Below are positions 1 to 17,100 of a stretch of 44,604 nucleotides of DNA, piece by piece. The stretch comes from Reclinomonas americana ATCC 50394 (Eukaryota), in NCBI GenBank assembly GCA_048213135.1, contig PS015129.1, positions 237,090-281,693 of the forward strand, written 5' to 3'. Position numbers and translations under genes: made by a program. The notes beneath the pieces are model-generated. The model was not told where the DNA came from. It saw only the letters and a list, made by a program, of their open reading frames with translations, and searched no databases. Each line of letters opens with the position of its first letter. Position 1 is the first letter of the stretch.

Positions 1-795
1 GCTGGCCACCCTGCTGCTGACCGCCCTGCTGCTGGCCACCCTGCTGTTGGCCACCCTGCTGCTGGCCACCCTGCTGCTGGCCACCCTGCTGCTGGCCACC
101 CTGCTGCTGGCCACCCTGCTGCTGGCCACCCTGCTGCTGGCCACCCTGCTGCTGGCCTCCCTGCTGTTGGCCGCCCTGCTGCTGGCCGCCCTGCTGCTGG
201 CCACCCTGCTGCTGGCCACCCTGCTGTTGGCCACCTTGCTGCTGGCCACCCTGCTGCTGGCCACCCTGCTGTTGGCCACCCTGCTGTTGGCCACCCTGCT
301 GTTGGCCACCTTGCTGCTGGCCACCCTGCTGCTGGCCACCCTGCTGTTGGCCACCCTGCTGTTGGCCACCCTGCTGTTGGCCACCCTGCTGCGGGGGCTG
401 CTGCTGGCCGCCTTGCTGGCCCTGCTCACCACCTTGCTGCGGAGGCTGCTGGCCGCCCTGCTGACCGCCCTGCTGGCCGCCCTGCTGACCACCCTGCTGG
501 CCGCCCTGCTGACCACCCTGCTGGCCACCCTGCTGACCACCCTGCTGGCCGCCCTGCTGACCACCCTGCTGGCCGCCCTGCTGACCGCCCTGCTGGCCGC
601 CCTGCTGGCCGCCTTGTTGGCCACCCTGCTGGCCGCCCTGCTGACCGCCCTGCTGACCACCCTGCTGGCCACCCTCCTGGCCACCCTGTTGACCGCCCTG
701 TTGGCCACCCTGCTGGCCGCCCTGCTGGCCACCCTGCTGGCCACCCTGCTGGCCGCCCTGCTGGCCGCCCTGCTGGCCGCCCTGCTGGCCGCCAG
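1..795 (-). repeat. Coding minisatellite: 12-bp GGQQ units (~440-795) and 15-bp GGQQQ units (1-~390)
   Basis: Plus strand reads ctgctggcc(a/g)cc and ctgctgctggccacc. Variation falls mostly at synonymous positions of the minus-strand Gly/Gln frame. A linker QPPQQGGEQGQQ lies between the two blocks. Confidence 0.92.
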
Positions 796-1184
796 CCTGC
801 GCGTTCAAAATCGACTGCGCACCAACAAGTCAGCCCACGCGCACAGACTAGACTTGTCCTTTCACGAGACACACACACACACCTGCACTGCCACAGTCTG
901 CCCGTCCACCTGCACCGACAGCGACGACACACTCAGTGTGCCAACACACGAGGCCGCCGTCAACACCTCCGTCGACGACACCATCACACCCGCTGCGCGC
1001 AAGAAAGAGTGATGAGAGAAAGCTCAAGGGTGAGCACACACACTCACACACATTCGCACTCACCACACAAGAGGGTGGATCCATTGTAGATTTGCACAGC
1101 GGGTGTGCGCGGTGCCGCCAGTGCCACCACACTGAGAAGCACGAGGAGCACCACCACCGATGTCACAGAATGCGAGCGCATCAT
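1..1184 (-). CDS. Secreted trypsin-like (peptidase S1) pseudoprotease with a long Gly/Gln repeat; 3' end outside the window
   Basis: Exons 1184-1064, 992-883 and 814-<1 have GT-AG borders and join in frame: MMRSHSVTSVVVLLVLLSVVALAAPRTPAVQIYNGSTLLCAGVMVSSTEVLTAASCVGTLSVSSLSVQVDGQTVAVQSILNAQAGGQQGGQQ... A hydrophobic signal peptide is followed by the C-x-G-x6-V-L-T-A-A-(H>S)-C pattern of S1 proteases. Confidence 0.75.
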
Positions 1185-1602: not shown

Positions 1603-4086
1603 TTATAACAGGTTTGCCTTCATCTCTATCATCTCTGTTGACTCCGATATCAATCGTACGTAAATCGGCGACCGCAGGAATCGCTGCGCACATCCGCGAC
1701 GCAAGTGAGTCGACTGCACTTGCAGACGGCACAACTCGTCTCACTCACCGAGAAGCTGTCACTGCGCATTAATCTGAGCACCGACAGCAGAGCCGGATCG
1801 AAGACTGCACAGCTGTGTCAAGGCCACGCAGCTTCTTTCATCTCCCCTTCTTCCCACTCACCACACGGCCACTCGTCACTCTCCCTACTTGTGCCCTTGA
1901 GTGAGGTCTGCGATTCCGACGGCCACTCATGCCGCCGCATAAACACATCCGGCCCGCCCACTTCGATTGCGCTCATCACCGCCCTCCGCGACTTGCTCGG
2001 CAGGTTCAGCTCGAACGGTGCATTGTCGGTGAGAAAGTCGTCGACAATCGCCTGCCCGAAGCGACGCAGCTCGGCACTCTGCTCCGCCGACTTGGTCGCC
2101 AGCTCCTCGTAGGCTTGCTGTCAGGAGTGCGTCAGAGACAACTGAACAGCACACACAGAATCAGCACGCACGCGCACGCACCCCCTTCTCCTTGTACTCC
2201 TGCACACGCTCGTAGAACTGGAGGTTTTCCACAGCAAACTCGGTGGCTGTTTTTGCATAACGGTGATGAGTGTAACGACGACACAAGGCAGTTCGAGTGC
2301 GCCGGTCACTCACCCAGGTACTCCCGAAACGCCTGGCGCCCGTCGATGGATTGCAGGATGTCCAGGAACGACGGCTCCGGTCGCTCGATCATGCGCTGTG
2401 AGAGTGTCTGCGATCCCCACGTGGCACTCCGCTGTCGCGACGAGTGCTCTCTCAACACTTCGCGTCGCCAGTGGCGAAGAATGGCGGCCAGCGGCGTGAT
2501 TGTCACCGCCTGCGATGCATGTGCGCAATCAGAATTTAGGAACGGTCAAAGAAGTCAGCGACGGCAAGCAGGGCCCACCAAGTAGAACACGCCAGACAGT
2601 GCCTGCTCAAAGGGCGCCAACCACATTTTCTCCGACGGAGGACCGGCCAGTCGCGTAATGGCGAAAGGCAGCGCGGTCAACGCGATAATGCACGAGAGAA
2701 CTTTCAACCTGCACGCCAGGGTGAGCAATGAGCGTTCCTCTCTCTCTCTCTTTCCACATCCAGCAAGCACGCAACTCGGAGGCCACTGAAAACGCGTCGT
2801 TGACACGCCGCAGGAGGACCAGGGCAATGACCGTGTACGCCACACCAAAGGCAAGGGTCTGCACTTACATTCGTCAGAGGGAGAGTGCGTGTGTGTGCGC
2901 GTCGACAAAGAGTCGCTCGACACGCACCAGCGCACAAGCAAAGATCACCACCGCATGCTGGGCGTTGAAGAAGGGGCAGTACACTTCGTCCAGATGCGAG
3001 CAAAAGTACTCGAGCTCGACAGTCGGCACACTTGGTCTTGTAAAATACGAACTCAGGAACGCAATCTGCCGCACGAGTGAGCGAGGCGTACGCACGCAGT
3101 CCCTGATGAGACACACACACACCATAAAGGGCGTCATGGCCGTGGGATACCAGAAGGCCAACATCACATTCTCCCTGCCATGCGGCAGTGGTGAGCGGCA
3201 GGCATGAAGAACATGCGCAGAGGAGCGAGACACACCTCAGACGCTTGCTCAGCCGCGTTCGTTTCATCATCTTTTCCACGGCGCGCGCCTCCTCTCGCTC
3301 GCTATTGGCGTTCCGAGCAGCAGCGGCGGTCGACCTGGACGCCCGTGCGGCAAGAAACACCCGAATCGCGCGCAGCTGCGCGGTGGGAGAGGAGTGAGGG
3401 CGGATCCACAACTATGCAGCATGCGCAAGGACGACGCTCACCAGTGGCACGAGAAGCACGGCGGGGAGCGAAATGTACGACTCCACATAGTCGATCCAGA
3501 GAAACTGTGCGCGCAGGGGGCGGCGGATGAGAAAAAGCGGTCTCGGAACTTCGTGAAAAGGGGCGGGTGCTGACCTCGTCGCGCGCGAAATCAGAAGCCA
3601 GGCGAAGAGACATCACGATGATGCCGACAATATACTGCCATATACGCAAGCGGTAATATGTGCGGTGGGGAGGGAGGAGGGAACGAATGATAATGAGCGT
3701 GGAACCAAAAATCCGAACACGCATGCAGAGCGATGAATGCACCAGCAGAATAAGCAGCCTTGGCGACCTGTTCCTCACAGCATCGCGCTTTCTGAACCGG
3801 AAGACCAGCTGAACAGCAGCAGTGATTGCGCGTGTGAGAGAGAGGGTGTGTGTGAGAGTGTGAGTGTGTCCACTCACCAGCAGTCCTAAAACACAGAACC
3901 CCAGCGCCACACCCCTAAACACCGCATCCACCGTGAACTGCACAGTCTTTTCGTTGTAGATGAACGCCTGCTGCAACGACTGCGTGGCAAGTGTGAGTTG
4001 CAATGATCGCTGCGCGCGTTGCAATCAGCGTTGTGCGCGACTGCACACACCCAGTTGCACGAGGTACCCGAGAACACATCCACCAT
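1603..4086 (-). CDS. 7TM-RGS protein (multipass membrane domain fused to a C-terminal RGS domain)
   Basis: Spliced TM exons include VALGFCVLGLL / RFRKRDAVRNRSPRLLILL / YISLPAVLLVPL-LRAIRVF / LVLLRRVNDAFSVASELR. RGS motifs follow: ILQSIDGRQAFREYL, EFAVENLQFYERVQEYK, IVDDFLTDNAPFELNLPSKSR, VFDPALLSVLRLMRSDSFS-RFLRSPIY. Stop TAA at 1605-1603. Start is either 4086 (MVDVF) or 4134 (MAPFL). Confidence 0.88.
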
Positions 4087-6790: not shown

Positions 6791-9700
6791 TCACCTGCGC
6801 TCGCCCGCTGCTCGCATGTCACCCGTGCTGCTATTCGTGGAGGTGCCGGTGGTCGACTCGTCGAGCGACGAGCCGCCCCCGGTGACTTTGACTGCCGGCG
6901 TGTTGACGGCGAGCGCTTCACGGCTGCTACTGCGGCTATGTGCGCGCGATCCCGCTCCCGTGTTGCTGCTGTTGCTGCCGCCGCTGGCGGCAAGAAGGCT
7001 ATCGCGGCCGGCGCCACCTTCGCCAGAGCTTGAGCGACTGAAATGGGGGAGGAAGGTGAGGGGGGTTGTGAAGCACACACAGACGCCGCGGCATACACAC
7101 ACCGGTGGTGATGGACGCGACGGTGCTCTGTCGATCCAGCGGTCTGGTGAGAGCGCGCACACGCGGGGTGCTCGCCGACACGCATCGGTCGCTTGCCGAG
7201 GCGCAGCAAGAACATGATGGCACAGCCGACAATCACAGCAATGGTGAAACCGAGGGCGAAAGGGTAATTGCCGCGGCCAGAGTACACCAGCAGGCCCACC
7301 ACGCACACCGTGCCGCGGAGGCACAGAATGAGGAATTCACCAATGGCGTGGCCACAGCTGCGGAACGCAGTGGGAAACAAGCAAGAGGCCCACTGTCTTC
7401 CAACACCCTCACCTGATACGCGTTCCGGTCGGACTGTTGCGCTGAGCGCGCAGTCGTCCCGCCTCGAACGGGAACATGACGTCGACCAGCAAGTACCACA
7501 CCAGCAGCACAGCGCGCACCGCCATGGACTGATCGGGCGGCCGTCCAGATGAGGAGACCACTGCCGAGTGGTGCTGTGCCACCAGCGGGCCGCCCACTGC
7601 CGGCACATCGTCGCGCGAAGAGACGCGACGCATACCGGGCTCCGCGAGTGCGGCGTTGGCTGGAGCAGCGGCGGCAGCAGCGACTGGAGCGCTCGACGAG
7701 GCACCAATGCCGGCGCCGCTCTGCTCCACGTCGTCGGACTCAGACTCGGTGTAGGATTCCGAGTCTGAGTCGGAATCGCGGCGCTCCGGGTGCTCCGCCA
7801 CCCACTTGTCCCAGTCGCCTGGCGAACTGGAGCCGGCCGCGAACTCCTGGTTGTTGCCATCCGACTGCGACCCGGAGGAATTCAGGAGGGCCGACGTGAA
7901 GAAGATGGAGAGCTGGAGCGAGCCAATGACCACGTTGATCTGCAGCCAGTGGAGAAGAGTGAGAAGGAAGAGGAGGATGGGGCTAGTACGGCATTGACAA
8001 AACGCAACAGCCAGTGGAAACACGTAGAATCCAATCGACAGATGCACAGAGGTCAGCGCAATGCTAAACACGGCGTGCATGCCAATCTCCCAGTTGCTGA
8101 ATCCGCTGGCACCACACAGACCCGTCCCCGTCAGCTGCAGCGCGCAGGTGAGTGTGAGGGAGCACAAACGAGACGGACGGTGGAGACAGCAAACGTCCAC
8201 GCACCACCACATGGCGCACGAGCCAGTTCAAGCTCGACGACATCATGATGCCAATGTGCAAGATCGAGAAGATGACCGAGATGACAAAGAGCGGCGTCAC
8301 CGTTTCGCGGCGGAAGATCATGTACATTTGCAGGCACAGCATCGCTTGCACGGCTGCGGGGAGGAAATGAGAATGGGAATGACAAGGAACAGCAGACAGA
8401 TGGGTAGGCGCTCACCACAAATGGTGGTCACCATGACCCACGCCGACGGGGTGGTGATCTCGGCATCGCGCTGAAACTCGTACAGCTCGGAGCCGATGCC
8501 GCGCGGGTCCATCAGACCCTCGCTGCTCTTCTCGGACGACATGAGAGCTTTGCGCGGTCCGCGACGGTGAAAGTCGCGAATGTCCAGCACCGTGCGGTAG
8601 AGTGGAATCACACCGCCGAGGGCCACTGCGTCAGAGGAGGACAGAAGGGTGGATGGTTCAGAGAAGGAGAAGATGTGTACGCATAAGAGGAAGAGTGCGA
8701 CTCTTCAATTCAAGAGGTCAGGTCAAAGTGCACGTGGCATTCCCACGCCCCGAGATTGCACAACTCTTCTCTTCAAGAAGGCAAATGAAACAACACGCTG
8801 AATTCCCACACCCCACTATCCAACAACCAAGAACAGAGGGGATATTGCGACTCTTCTCTTCAAGAGGGCAAGCGTTGCAATCCACACAGAAGGTGAATGA
8901 GTATGGCAGAAGAGGGGGAGACTGCAACTCTCCTCTTCAAGAGGGCAAGCCATAGAACACGTTACAATCCACACACCCCGAGATTGCACAACTCTTCTCT
9001 TCAAGAAGGCAAGTCAAACAACACGCTGAATCCCCACGCCCACTATCCAACAACGGTGCAGAACCAAGGAGATGAATGGGAGAATGCAACTCTTCTCTTC
9101 AAGAGGGCAAGCCATAGAACACGCTACAATCCACACACCCCACTATCCAACAACGATGCAGAACCAAGGCAGAAGAGGGGATATTGCGATTCTTCTCTTC
9201 AAGAGGGCAAGCGTTGCAATCCACACAAAAGGTGAATGAGTATGGCAGAAGAGGGGGAGACTGCAACTCTCCTCTTCAAGAGGGCAAGCCATAGAACACG
9301 TTACAATCCACACACCCCACTATCCAACAACGATGCAAAACTAAGGCAGGAGAATGGGAGATTGCAACTCTCCTCTGAGAGGGCAAGCCACAGAGCACGG
9401 TGCCCCACAATTGTGCAAGCGAGGGGAGCCTCGGCAAACAAGACAGGGAACAGAGAACAAGCAAGTCAAAGAACTGCACCCTACGACTATGGTAGACAAA
9501 GAGTTGATTGCCACTCTTCTCCCCAAGTACCCCTTCCTCCCCTGCTGTCTGCATCCCCCGCGTACGCAACAAAAGAAGAGCAACCAGTCGGAACAGCGCA
9601 GATTGCGCACGTACGCCACGGTGACAATGAGCGGCCCGAGGTACGCAAAGCCAATGAACGAGAGCGCCACGCCAAACGGCGCCTTGTCGGGATCCTCAAA

Positions 9701-14124: not shown

Positions 14125-17100
14125 ATGGAAGAGCGCGCGCAGGAGTGGTCCACACAACTGCGTCACGCTGCGCACGACTGTGGCACACGCGGTCTGCGCA
14201 ATGCTGCGCGTTGGTGCGTGAAAGAGAGAGAGACAAAAACAGTGAGAGTGTGAACAACTCACACACACTCAACACACACAGGGCGGTGCAAGTGCTGCAC
14301 GATGTGAGCACACAGTTTCCCTCATGTCGACCATCTGCTGCTGCACCAGTCGCGCAAGAGGAAGTTGCGCGACACAGTGTGTGTGTGTGAGAGAGGGAGA
14401 GAGTGAATGCTCACTGGTGCAATAGGCGAGTGATTTCTGGGCGGATTATGACACATACGCGCTGGCCTTGTCGTACTTTGAGGGCGCAGAACTGCGTCGC
14501 TGTTCATATAGTCTCCGCCAGTGTCGTTCACAGAAGGTGAGTGCGTACTGAAGGAAGGGATCTGTGACTTCCTTGTCTCCCTCCTCTCTCTCTCTCTCTT
14601 TCTCTCTTTCTCTTGTCTCTCCCTCTCTTGTTTGCCACTCACAGCTCTTCTTCTCCTCCTTCTCCTCCTCCTCTCTCCCTCTCTCATGTTTGTCACTCAC
14701 GGCTCTTCTCACCTGTCTCCCTCTCTTTCCTCTCTTCTCTGTCTACNNNNNNNNNNNNNNNNNNNNNNNNNNNNNNNNNNNNNNNNNNNNNNNNNNNNNN
14801 NNNNNNNNNNNNNNNNNNNNNNNNNNNNNNNNNNNNNNNNNNNNNNNNNNNNNNNNNNNNNNNNNNNNNNNNNNNNNNNNNNNNNNNNNNNNNNNNNNNN
14901 NNNNNNNNNNNNNNNNNNNNNNNNNNNNNNNNNNNNNNNNNNNNNNNNNNNNNNNNNNNNNNNNNNNNNNNNNNNNNNNNNNNNNNNNNNNNNNNNNNNN
15001 NNNNNNNNNNNNNNNNNNNNNNNNNNNNNNNNNNNNNNNNNNNNNNNNNNNNNNNNNNNNNNNNNTCTCCTCCTCCTCTTCTTCTTCTCCTTCTTCTCCT
15101 TCTTGTTCTTCTTCTTCTCCTTCTTCTCTTCCTCATTCTTCTTCTCCTTCTCCTTCTTCTTCTCTTGCTCTTTCTCTCTTCCTTGCCAATCACTTCTCCT
15201 CCTTCCAGGCTCGCTTCCTGCGCCGCTACTCGCGCTACTTGGCTGGCGAGGAGCGTGCTCGACAGGAGCAAACGGAGCGCCACTCAGGTGTCCTCGCTGG
15301 CGTGCACGAGCCGAATCGAGAGCTGCAGGAGCTGGCCAATGATTTGGACTCGGATGCGAAAGGTCTTGGAGTGTGTGTGAGAGAGAAAGGACTGAGAGGC
15401 GGGCAGCACTCACGCGCATCTCGCAGCCGGCGACTTGGACGCTTTCAACTCGTACCTGTACGGCGTTGTACTATCGCGCCTGGCCGAGTACGAACGAGCC
15501 GCGCGCTGCCTGTGCACGGCGCTGCAAATGTATCCTTGTTTGTGGTCGGCGTTTGTCGAGTTGTCGACACTCGTGTCGCAACAGCGCGTGCATGTGCGTT
15601 GCTCTCCCGTGCGCCAGCTCTGTTTCCCACCTCTCATTGTCGCGCGTCGCACAGTTCGCCACACTGGATTTCGGTGCCGTGCGCCAGCACTGGGCATTTC
15701 AGTATTTTATCGCGCACCTGAGCGTCGAGCTGCAGCAGCCGCGCGATGCGTTGCTGGCCGTGCAGCAGCTCATGGCGCCGGAGGAAGGTCCACCGTCGGC
15801 GGAGACGCAGTTGTTGGCGACATCGGCGCTGACGTTGTTGAGGCCACGGGCGACGGCGCACTCGATTTTGCGAGGTGAGTGCGCATCACGCCAATACTTC
15901 CGTTTCCCGTGACTCATGCTGCTGTGCCGCAGATTTTGAGGCCAGCAACGAGTGCTTTGAGGAGTTGGTGATTCGCGATCCGTTCGCCGTGGAGCTCATG
16001 GACATGTATTCGAACATTCTTTACGTGCGCGAGGAACGCAGTGCCCTGGCGCGACTGGCGCACGCGTGTCACGCCGCGAACAAGTACCGCCCGGAGACGT
16101 GCTGTGTGGTCGGCAACTACTATTCGCTGCGGAGACAACACCAGAAGGCACTGGTGTACCTGCGCCGCGCGCTGCAAATGGATCCCACGTTGCGTCTCTC
16201 CCTTTTGTTTGGTGACGCAATGGGTTGGTTGAGTCTCACTGACACTTTTCTGCAGCTACGTGTCGGCGTGGACACTGATGGGCCACGAGTACATTGAGCT
16301 GAAGAACATTGGTGCCGCCATCTACGTGTATCGCAAGGCTGTTGGTATGTGTGTGTGTGTGCATCAAGGCCAGCTCGTGTCTCCCTTGCTCACTCACTAT
16401 TGTGCACTCTCCCACAGACATCAACGTGCGGGACTACCGCGCCTGGTACGGCCTGGGTCAGACGTACGAACTGCTGCACATGCCTCTGTATGCCCTGTAC
16501 TACTACCGCAAGGCTACCACGTTGAGACCAGACGACTCGCGCATGTGGTGTGCGCTCGGCGGCTGCTACGAGGAATTGCGTCGATTCGGCGAGGCGTTGG
16601 AATGCTATCGGCGCGCCCATCCGGTATCGCACGTGGTGATGGCGCTACCGTCGCAACCGTCTGCGGCGGCCGCGCCGTCAGCCTCGTCCACGTCGCGCAC
16701 GACGCCGGCTGTGGGAGTGGATTCGTCGGCCAATGAGGACGCAGGAGGCAAGGAGTCGCCGACTGCGGGCGCAGCCAGCGCAGCCGCTGGGGGAGCAACA
16801 GGGGCAGCGCGCGAAGAGGACGGGCTGGATGACTCGAAACCCGACAATTGGCTGCGCATGTACGATCCCGTGGCGCTGGCCAAGCAAGCGGCGTTGTATC
16901 GGCAGCTGAACGACTTGAACACGGCTGCGCACTGGTACACAAAGCTGGTGTTCGTGCAGAGACGACTGCAGGGTGACGCCGCGGTCGAGCCACCGATTCT
17001 TATGTTCCTGGCCCAGTACTACCACATGTGCGGTGAGAACGACGAGGCGATCAGCTACTGCATGCAGCTGCTGGACACCGGAGCGCCAGTTGCGTGCTGT

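Follow-up and report, generated by a model that had tools for sequence, protein, structure and literature searches.

A minus-strand gene at the left end of the window, the 44,604-nt stretch of Reclinomonas americana ATCC 50394 DNA analysed here, very likely encodes, as a single gene, a signal peptide, a catalytically dead S1A domain split by a Gly/Gln polymer, a Ser/Thr linker, one membrane helix and a cytoplasmic tail of about 180 residues, as judged from its sequence. Our working model, to which we give a probability of about 0.5, is that the product is not an enzyme but a pseudoprotease scaffold that displays a self-associating polymer as a surface coat or adhesive.

Gene structure in the window

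In the window (G000:C121:237090-281693) the gene is read on the minus strand from three exons at 1184-1064, 992-883 and 814-1, which together give 348 residues without a stop. Both introns are of the GT-AG type: intron 1 (993..1063) is 71 nt long and in phase 1, and intron 2 (815..882) is 68 nt long and in phase 0. Exon 1 (1064..1184) encodes a predicted signal peptide (about residues 1-23) and the opening S1A strands as far as the equivalent of Cys42. The signal peptide had been proposed in the initial annotation, and residues 6-24 are indeed hydrophobic, with a mean hydropathy of 2.67. Exon 2 (883..992) carries the VLTAASC motif, in which His57 is replaced by Ser (codon at 951-949, followed by the Cys58 equivalent at 948-946), and the subsequent strands. 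Exon 3 starts with seven residues (794..814) which, when placed against the paralog L024, complete the strand whose paralogous counterparts end in an HP motif before the 99-loop. The polymer follows. Block 1 (446..793) consists of 29 copies of a 12-nt unit (GGQQ), a short spacer with two Pro-Pro pairs lies at 393..445, and in block 2 (1..392) a 15-nt unit (GGQQQ) is repeated at least 26 times, up to an assembly gap.

A plus-strand reading of the repeat, which is Leu/Ala/Thr-rich and open for 336 codons, was rejected because the variation falls at minus-strand third positions and because the spliced signal peptide feeds the minus frame. An intron shared with the paralogs was likewise rejected, since intron 1 lies, by eye, one codon ahead of the matching intron of L022 and L024.

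Sequence beyond the window and the probable membrane anchor

The window begins at a gap of 1584 N (L003:7007-8590, minus strand, left of base 1). A second copy of the gene lies on G000:C11, collinear over 18.7 kb at 94.9% identity, and is most simply the other haplotype of the same assembly. There the polymer stops at a gap of 677 N, beyond which lie a piece of 508 nt, a further gap of 473 N and the last part of the gene. The 508-nt piece translates to 168 residues and contains the C-terminal S1A half, the Ser/Thr linker and the start of a membrane helix (L004:2760-3263); used as a query, it was found only on C11, apart from four weak matches. The first gap is in frame when its ends are joined, with repeat-like bases in polymer phase on its far side. 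The second gap closes within one Gly codon of the membrane helix. The third base of this split codon differs between the haplotypes, which suggests that the assembly merged both haplotypes into the 508-nt piece and that the length given to the second gap is not real. The continuity of the gene thus spans unsequenced gaps, and its C-terminal half is present on one haplotype only. The distance from the repeat to the end of the helix is about 1.6 kb on both scaffolds, which leaves 1076-1150 nt unaccounted for; if this is all polymer and the scaffold distance is right, the polymer would total about 620-650 residues.

The end of the helix, an RRRRR cluster and the tail up to a TGA stop are present on both haplotypes, about 1.6-2.2 kb left of base 1 and on the same strand as the window gene (L003:7005-6430; L004:3740-4312). 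The helix, which spans the gap, has a mean hydropathy of 2.44. The tail (182 residues to the end of translation) is Ser/Pro/Ala-rich, with a PPPPP run and four PxxP matches, and gave no match to Pfam. The protein had been described as secreted. Since the membrane helix, RRRRR and the tail come after the trypsin domain on both haplotypes, this description is contradicted, and the protein is probably a type I membrane-anchored protein with a signal peptide, a single helix, a basic cluster and a cytoplasmic tail.

The N-terminal half and loss of the catalytic residues

The motif TAASC (residues 52-56) stands for the TAAHC of S1A proteases; TAAHC, DIAL and GDSGGP are the S1A motifs as quoted in PMC1761132. 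As the initial annotation pointed out, the Ser codon TCG is more than a single-base step from a His codon, and all three of its positions differ from CAT and CAC. The flanking Cys pair is retained (Cys40 and Cys56 of the model, equivalent to Cys42 and Cys58), with 15 residues between the two and hence S1A-like spacing. IVGG is absent from the gene, also in agreement with that annotation. The remaining S1A positions are given in chymotrypsin numbering.

The absence of an S1 profile match for residues of about 25-80 had been named as refuting this assignment. An HMM built from 17 S1A proteins scored the N-terminal half at 21.6 bits, a value reached by none of 1000 shuffles, and hhalign with exon 2 alone gave 79.8% and an E-value of 1.5e-5. 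The S1 likeness of this half thus exceeds what chance would give. In a scan against Pfam Trypsin (PF00089), the best of six separately scanned pieces reached 14.2 bits (E 0.04; cut-off 20.6), and a PDB sequence search with exon 2 returned 0 matches.

Of the catalytic triad, His57 is replaced by Ser and Asp102 by Pro, and Ser195 is kept. Asp194 is replaced by Ala, so that with IVGG missing the Ile16-Asp194 activation pair is absent and the features of an active S1A protease are lacking. The G-W-G motif is also lost. The proposal that a Gly/Gln polymer breaks up an S1A scaffold without catalytic function is supported, with two of the three triad residues replaced and the insert just ahead of the Asp102 strand. 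As far as catalysis can be judged from sequence, the protein is a serine protease homolog (pseudoprotease), that is, an S1A sequence in which at least one triad residue is replaced.

The C-terminal half as the probable rest of the trypsin domain

The search for DIAL- and GDSGG-like segments after the repeat, suggested previously, located both on the second haplotype. In a MAFFT alignment, residues of the C-terminal half match the columns of Cys168, Cys182, Asp189, Gly193, Ser195, Pro198 and Cys220, and GASGAP replaces GDSGGP. Exactly six Cys occur across both halves, in S1A order (pairs 42-58, 168-182 and 191-220); five lie on conserved columns, and one Cys of the third pair sits one position before the Cys191 column. 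A Thr run occupies the site where an S1A helix is expected.

The semiglobal score of the C-terminal half against 16 S1A proteins was equalled by 2 of 500 shuffles (z 2.9), and in a control against 16 actins by 94 of 200. Against two exons of the paralog L024, in segments picked by eye, none of 2000 shuffles scored as high, and BLASTP gave E-values of 0.083 and 3e-4. The ESM Atlas placed the C-terminal piece, searched on its own, in the Peptidase_S6 and Trypsin clusters at 0.95, a level which according to the tool shuffles reach once in 100, and all of the 10 best matches belonged to the trypsin clan. The shared-feature counts were 134-136 against 170 typical of matches within a family, which is compatible only with a distant relative.

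Profile scores were low. The HMM gave the C-terminal half 0.8 bits, which is not significant (equalled by 66 of 1000 shuffles), and hhalign gave 1.2% with an E-value of 0.045. The joined halves scored 18.4 bits and the halves in swapped order 17.9, a comparison that carries no evidence on collinearity. The Pfam scan of the C-terminal half gave no Trypsin match, and the PDB sequence search gave two weak unrelated matches and no S1 protein. AlphaFold modelled the half with a pLDDT of 36.2 alone and 49.0 with 20 alignment rows, too low to inform on the fold. With the second of these models, Foldseek returned 0 matches and VIA-align returned three trypsin-family rows (Z 2.0-2.6, rmsd 5.1-6.5), which carry no weight because that model was itself built from a trypsin alignment. 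Taken at sequence level, there is moderate evidence that the C-terminal half is the remainder of the trypsin domain. The S1A fold may be loose in this protein, because the third-pair Cys is shifted and the G-W-G motif and the activation segment are lost.

The Gly/Gln polymer and its insertion site

The Gly/Gln stretch had been estimated at more than 260 residues, and 264 were counted up to the edge of the window. They comprise 143 Q, 115 G, 4 P and 2 E, so that 258 of the 264 are Gly or Gln. The sequenced polymer contains no Cys, Tyr, Lys, Ser or Thr, and the sequenced ectodomain as a whole contains no Lys. The ESM Atlas gave no usable match with the polymer. An assembly search with 100 polymer residues, in which simple repeats are under-searched, gave five matches, of which three were at the locus and two were weak and had no clear GQ tract.

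The polymer had been placed about 30 residues after the Cys pair, and its first residue is number 85, which lies 29 residues past the second Cys. In the paralog L024, 9 residues separate the HP-ending strand from the Asp102 strand. Of 16 database proteins, 15 could be matched here and have a loop of 7-13 residues; in L008 it has 10. In the present protein, residue 84 is the last of the strand equivalent to the HP strand. The Asp102 strand, which shares the segment LASAVT with L024, begins directly past the gap. By this alignment, therefore, the polymer is predicted to occupy the 99 (kallikrein) loop, inside the trypsin domain and just ahead of the Asp102 strand.

This position bears on the roles that had been offered for the polymer. 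As both ends attach to one domain, the polymer would not bear load in series. Comparison with a glutenin- or Cnidoin-type elastomer keeps its basis in the long Gly/Gln-rich repeat, but it is weakened by the absence of GXGQQ and of Cys, Tyr and Lys and by the attachment of both ends to one domain. A self-crosslinking transglutaminase substrate would find 143 Gln residues in the polymer but no Lys there or elsewhere in the sequenced ectodomain, and this idea is weakened too; Transglut_core has 10 matches in the assembly. Cytosolic prion-like behaviour fits poorly with a polymer placed in an extracellular loop. Because Ser, Thr, Tyr, Cys and Lys are missing from the polymer, and Lys from the sequenced ectodomain, the polymer by its composition would be neither a mucin nor self-crosslinking.

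Variation between haplotypes

The N-terminal coding sequence (exons 1 and 2 and the start of exon 3) is identical between the haplotypes over all 252 nt, and the two introns together show four mismatches and three indels (two mismatches and one indel in intron 1). Over the 573-576 nt of the helix end and tail, seven bases differ and one codon is inserted or deleted; all seven differences are synonymous, an outcome reached in 3 of 20001 simulations. In the repeat, 70 codons are other than the most frequent one for Gly or Gln, and 64 of them are synonymous; on the other haplotype, 58 of 65 such codons are. Of 72 changes, 65 are at the third position. Among possible single changes in the repeat codons 21% are synonymous and 79% non-synonymous; as the repeat units share ancestry, the synonymous count is non-independent and is descriptive, carrying no probability. 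The two haplotypes have the same two-block layout, with identical Pro-Pro spacers, and differ in the copy number of block 1 (29 versus about 23). Since 64 of 70 repeat variants and all seven tail differences are synonymous, the codon pattern argues for a protein under maintenance.

Paralogs, homologues and genome context

A Pfam family search of the assembly gave 23 matches to the trypsin family, and the present locus was not among them. Exon 2 matched only the two copies of the gene in the assembly. Searches for homologues of the C-terminal half gave none at E<=1 when 8000 candidates with lengths of 295-2000 residues were scored, and none at E<=0.001 in 1.84 billion representatives, and so no cross-species conservation stands behind a function of the polymer.

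S1A loci with introns occur in pairs. L007/8, L015/16 and L017/18 look intact, with triads read across introns by eye in two of the three pairs. L024 (L024:1023-2692; pair L025) has a Pfam Trypsin E-value of 2.3e-6 for one exon and a probable C-terminal membrane helix. This pair, too, encodes a dead S1A protein: read by eye, its triad positions hold Glu, Asn and Leu. It resembles the polymer gene in carrying LASAVT and, at the C-terminal end, a stretch that looks like a helix together with a cluster of basic residues. Unlike the polymer gene, L024/L025 keeps IVGG, lacks a polymer, and has a loop of 9 residues and a tail that is very short. Another S1A pair, L049/L050 (G000:C3812 and C61), keeps IVGG and Asp102, has Lys and Thr at the places of Gly193 and Ser195, and ends in a Thr run and a hydrophobic stretch resembling a GPI signal.

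The upstream neighbour on the same strand contains an RGS domain at 1923-2117 (minus strand; Pfam E 7.6e-4, below the cut-off). Its exons extend up to about 4600, and hydrophobic exons precede the RGS domain, giving the look of a multi-pass membrane RGS protein. The downstream neighbour (L003:6340-4500, minus strand) has many exons, is coiled-coil-rich by eye and is present on both haplotypes. Elsewhere in the window, a 100-nt tandem unit is present in 2.3 copies at 8989-9212, where the haplotypes align in overlapping pieces, and an exon at 15842-16294 (plus strand) resembles a TPR subunit of the anaphase-promoting complex. The genome is intron-rich and GC-rich and has many divergent actin genes. 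The actin family gave 132 matches in the assembly (C60, C29, C551, C3827 and others), many of them in tandem; a tested actin exon showed identities of 51-69% to many groups and at most 69% to the 120 listed database actins. The contigs G000:C1 and C2 exceed 1.8 Mb, carry HtrA-like genes free of introns, have loci of 44-50% GC and are probably co-assembled bacteria.

Working model and alternative explanations

Gly/Gln chains tend to collapse and self-associate. In the working model, the two halves of the domain would fold together and form a stable stand that grips both ends of the polymer. We infer such folding because the six Cys and the core pattern persist. The polymer, almost uncharged and not open to glycosylation, would then form a collapsed, self-associating loop at the cell surface and could serve as a coat or adhesive, and the tail may connect through PPPPP and PxxP to cytoskeletal or trafficking partners. 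An adhesive role was already part of the initial annotation; coat or adhesive is still the best guess, and the secreted form of the idea has been given up.

An unlikely but serious alternative is that the repeat is a coding minisatellite tolerated in a permissive surface loop, where it need only keep the frame, and that the function belongs to the pseudoprotease domain as a ligand binder and to the tail, as in a receptor. Block 1 does differ in copy number between the haplotypes, and the closest paralog, L024, is dead as well and has a membrane-helix-like end with no polymer in its loop; in kallikreins the 99-loop accepts insertions, according to PMC4256358. Against this, drift restricted only by frame would let amino-acid changes in, yet no more than 6 of the 70 variant codons alter the amino acid, when 79% of possible single changes would do so; the two-block layout and the Pro-Pro spacer are unchanged between haplotypes, and a loop so large beside the cleft would be expected to impede ligand binding. 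It is less probable again that the trypsin fold is gone and its halves are decaying remnants, so that the protein would in effect be a linear Gly/Gln polymer tethered to the membrane and capped by a small N-terminal piece. The weak profile scores of the C-terminal half, the lost G-W-G, the Thr run in place of a helix and the shifted Cys would suit such decay, but the six Cys remain in S1A order, the core hydrophobic pattern can still be aligned, and the N-terminal exons are identical across haplotypes when the introns are not.

Other readings are more remote. The two halves might act as a force-released latch, parting under pull, paying out an entropic tether and docking again, which would make the protein a reversible, extensible adhesin for the capture of prey or substrate. 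This reading arises because no predicted disulfide links the halves, so that the polymer, with computed contour lengths of 95-220 nm, is the sole covalent join between an N-terminal half of about 60 residues and the anchored C-terminal half; we regard it as improbable. The chance is slimmer still that a stop or a gene boundary lies within the gap, the window gene being a secreted half-domain with polymer and the downstream part a separate gene. The unsequenced 1584 N on its own haplotype and 677 and 473 N on the other leave room for this, but the sequence after the gap opens with repeat-like bases in polymer phase and at exactly the strand that the N-terminal half misses, the second gap falls inside a single Gly codon of the helix, and the C-terminal half has no signal peptide of its own. 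A residual or unusual hydrolysis through Ser195, gated by the giant loop, is extremely improbable: the protein does retain Ser195, Gly193 and, in column 189, an Asp, and the 99-loop regulates activity in kallikrein (PMC4256358), but His57 and Asp102 are both substituted and the Ile16-Asp194 pair is missing.

Relation to known proteins and significance

The pseudoprotease scaffold of the working model has several known counterparts. Arthropod S1A serine protease homologs, as described in PMC1761132 and PMC3665817, likewise have catalytic substitutions, and some have a transmembrane region and some are adhesive. Those described there carry extra modules or repeats beside the protease domain, whereas here the polymer is inside it, a clip domain is missing and the anchor lies on the C-terminal side. 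The Phytophthora glucanase inhibitor proteins (PMC3091767) also come from a microbial eukaryote and are trypsin-like but inactive, and their family includes active paralogs; they are secreted inhibitors, whereas the present protein appears to be anchored and carries a giant insert as well as a cytoplasmic tail. Dead S1A domains that act as binders or mediators of adhesion are thus known (PMC3091767, PMC3665817).

The classical kallikreins KLK1-3 have an insertion at the same site, from residue 95 to the Asp102 strand, and their loop is largely disordered (PMC4256358). It adds 11 residues to an active enzyme, whereas here at least 264 residues are added to a dead one. Cnidoin and Spidroin-2 share with the present protein a long extracellular Gly/Gln-rich repeat with GQQ units (PMC4321713). 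Their motif is GXGQQ and the present units are GGQQ and GGQQQ. In Cnidoin, Cys-rich cross-linking domains flank the repeat and load is borne in series, in contrast to a polymer without Cys, Tyr or Lys that has both ends on one domain (PMC4321713 for Cnidoin). A word-matching search of open-licence papers found no insert of several hundred residues inside an S1 domain.

Dead trypsins are common, and it is the polymer that sets this protein apart, being at least 20 times as long as the 11 residues of the kallikrein loop. If confirmed, the protein would mean that the 99-loop is able to carry a polymer bigger than the domain itself, and it would make it possible to test, in a naturally occurring protein, how a domain folds around a disordered loop of such size. 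It would also represent a new route to a protist surface coat or adhesive, starting from an enzyme scaffold.
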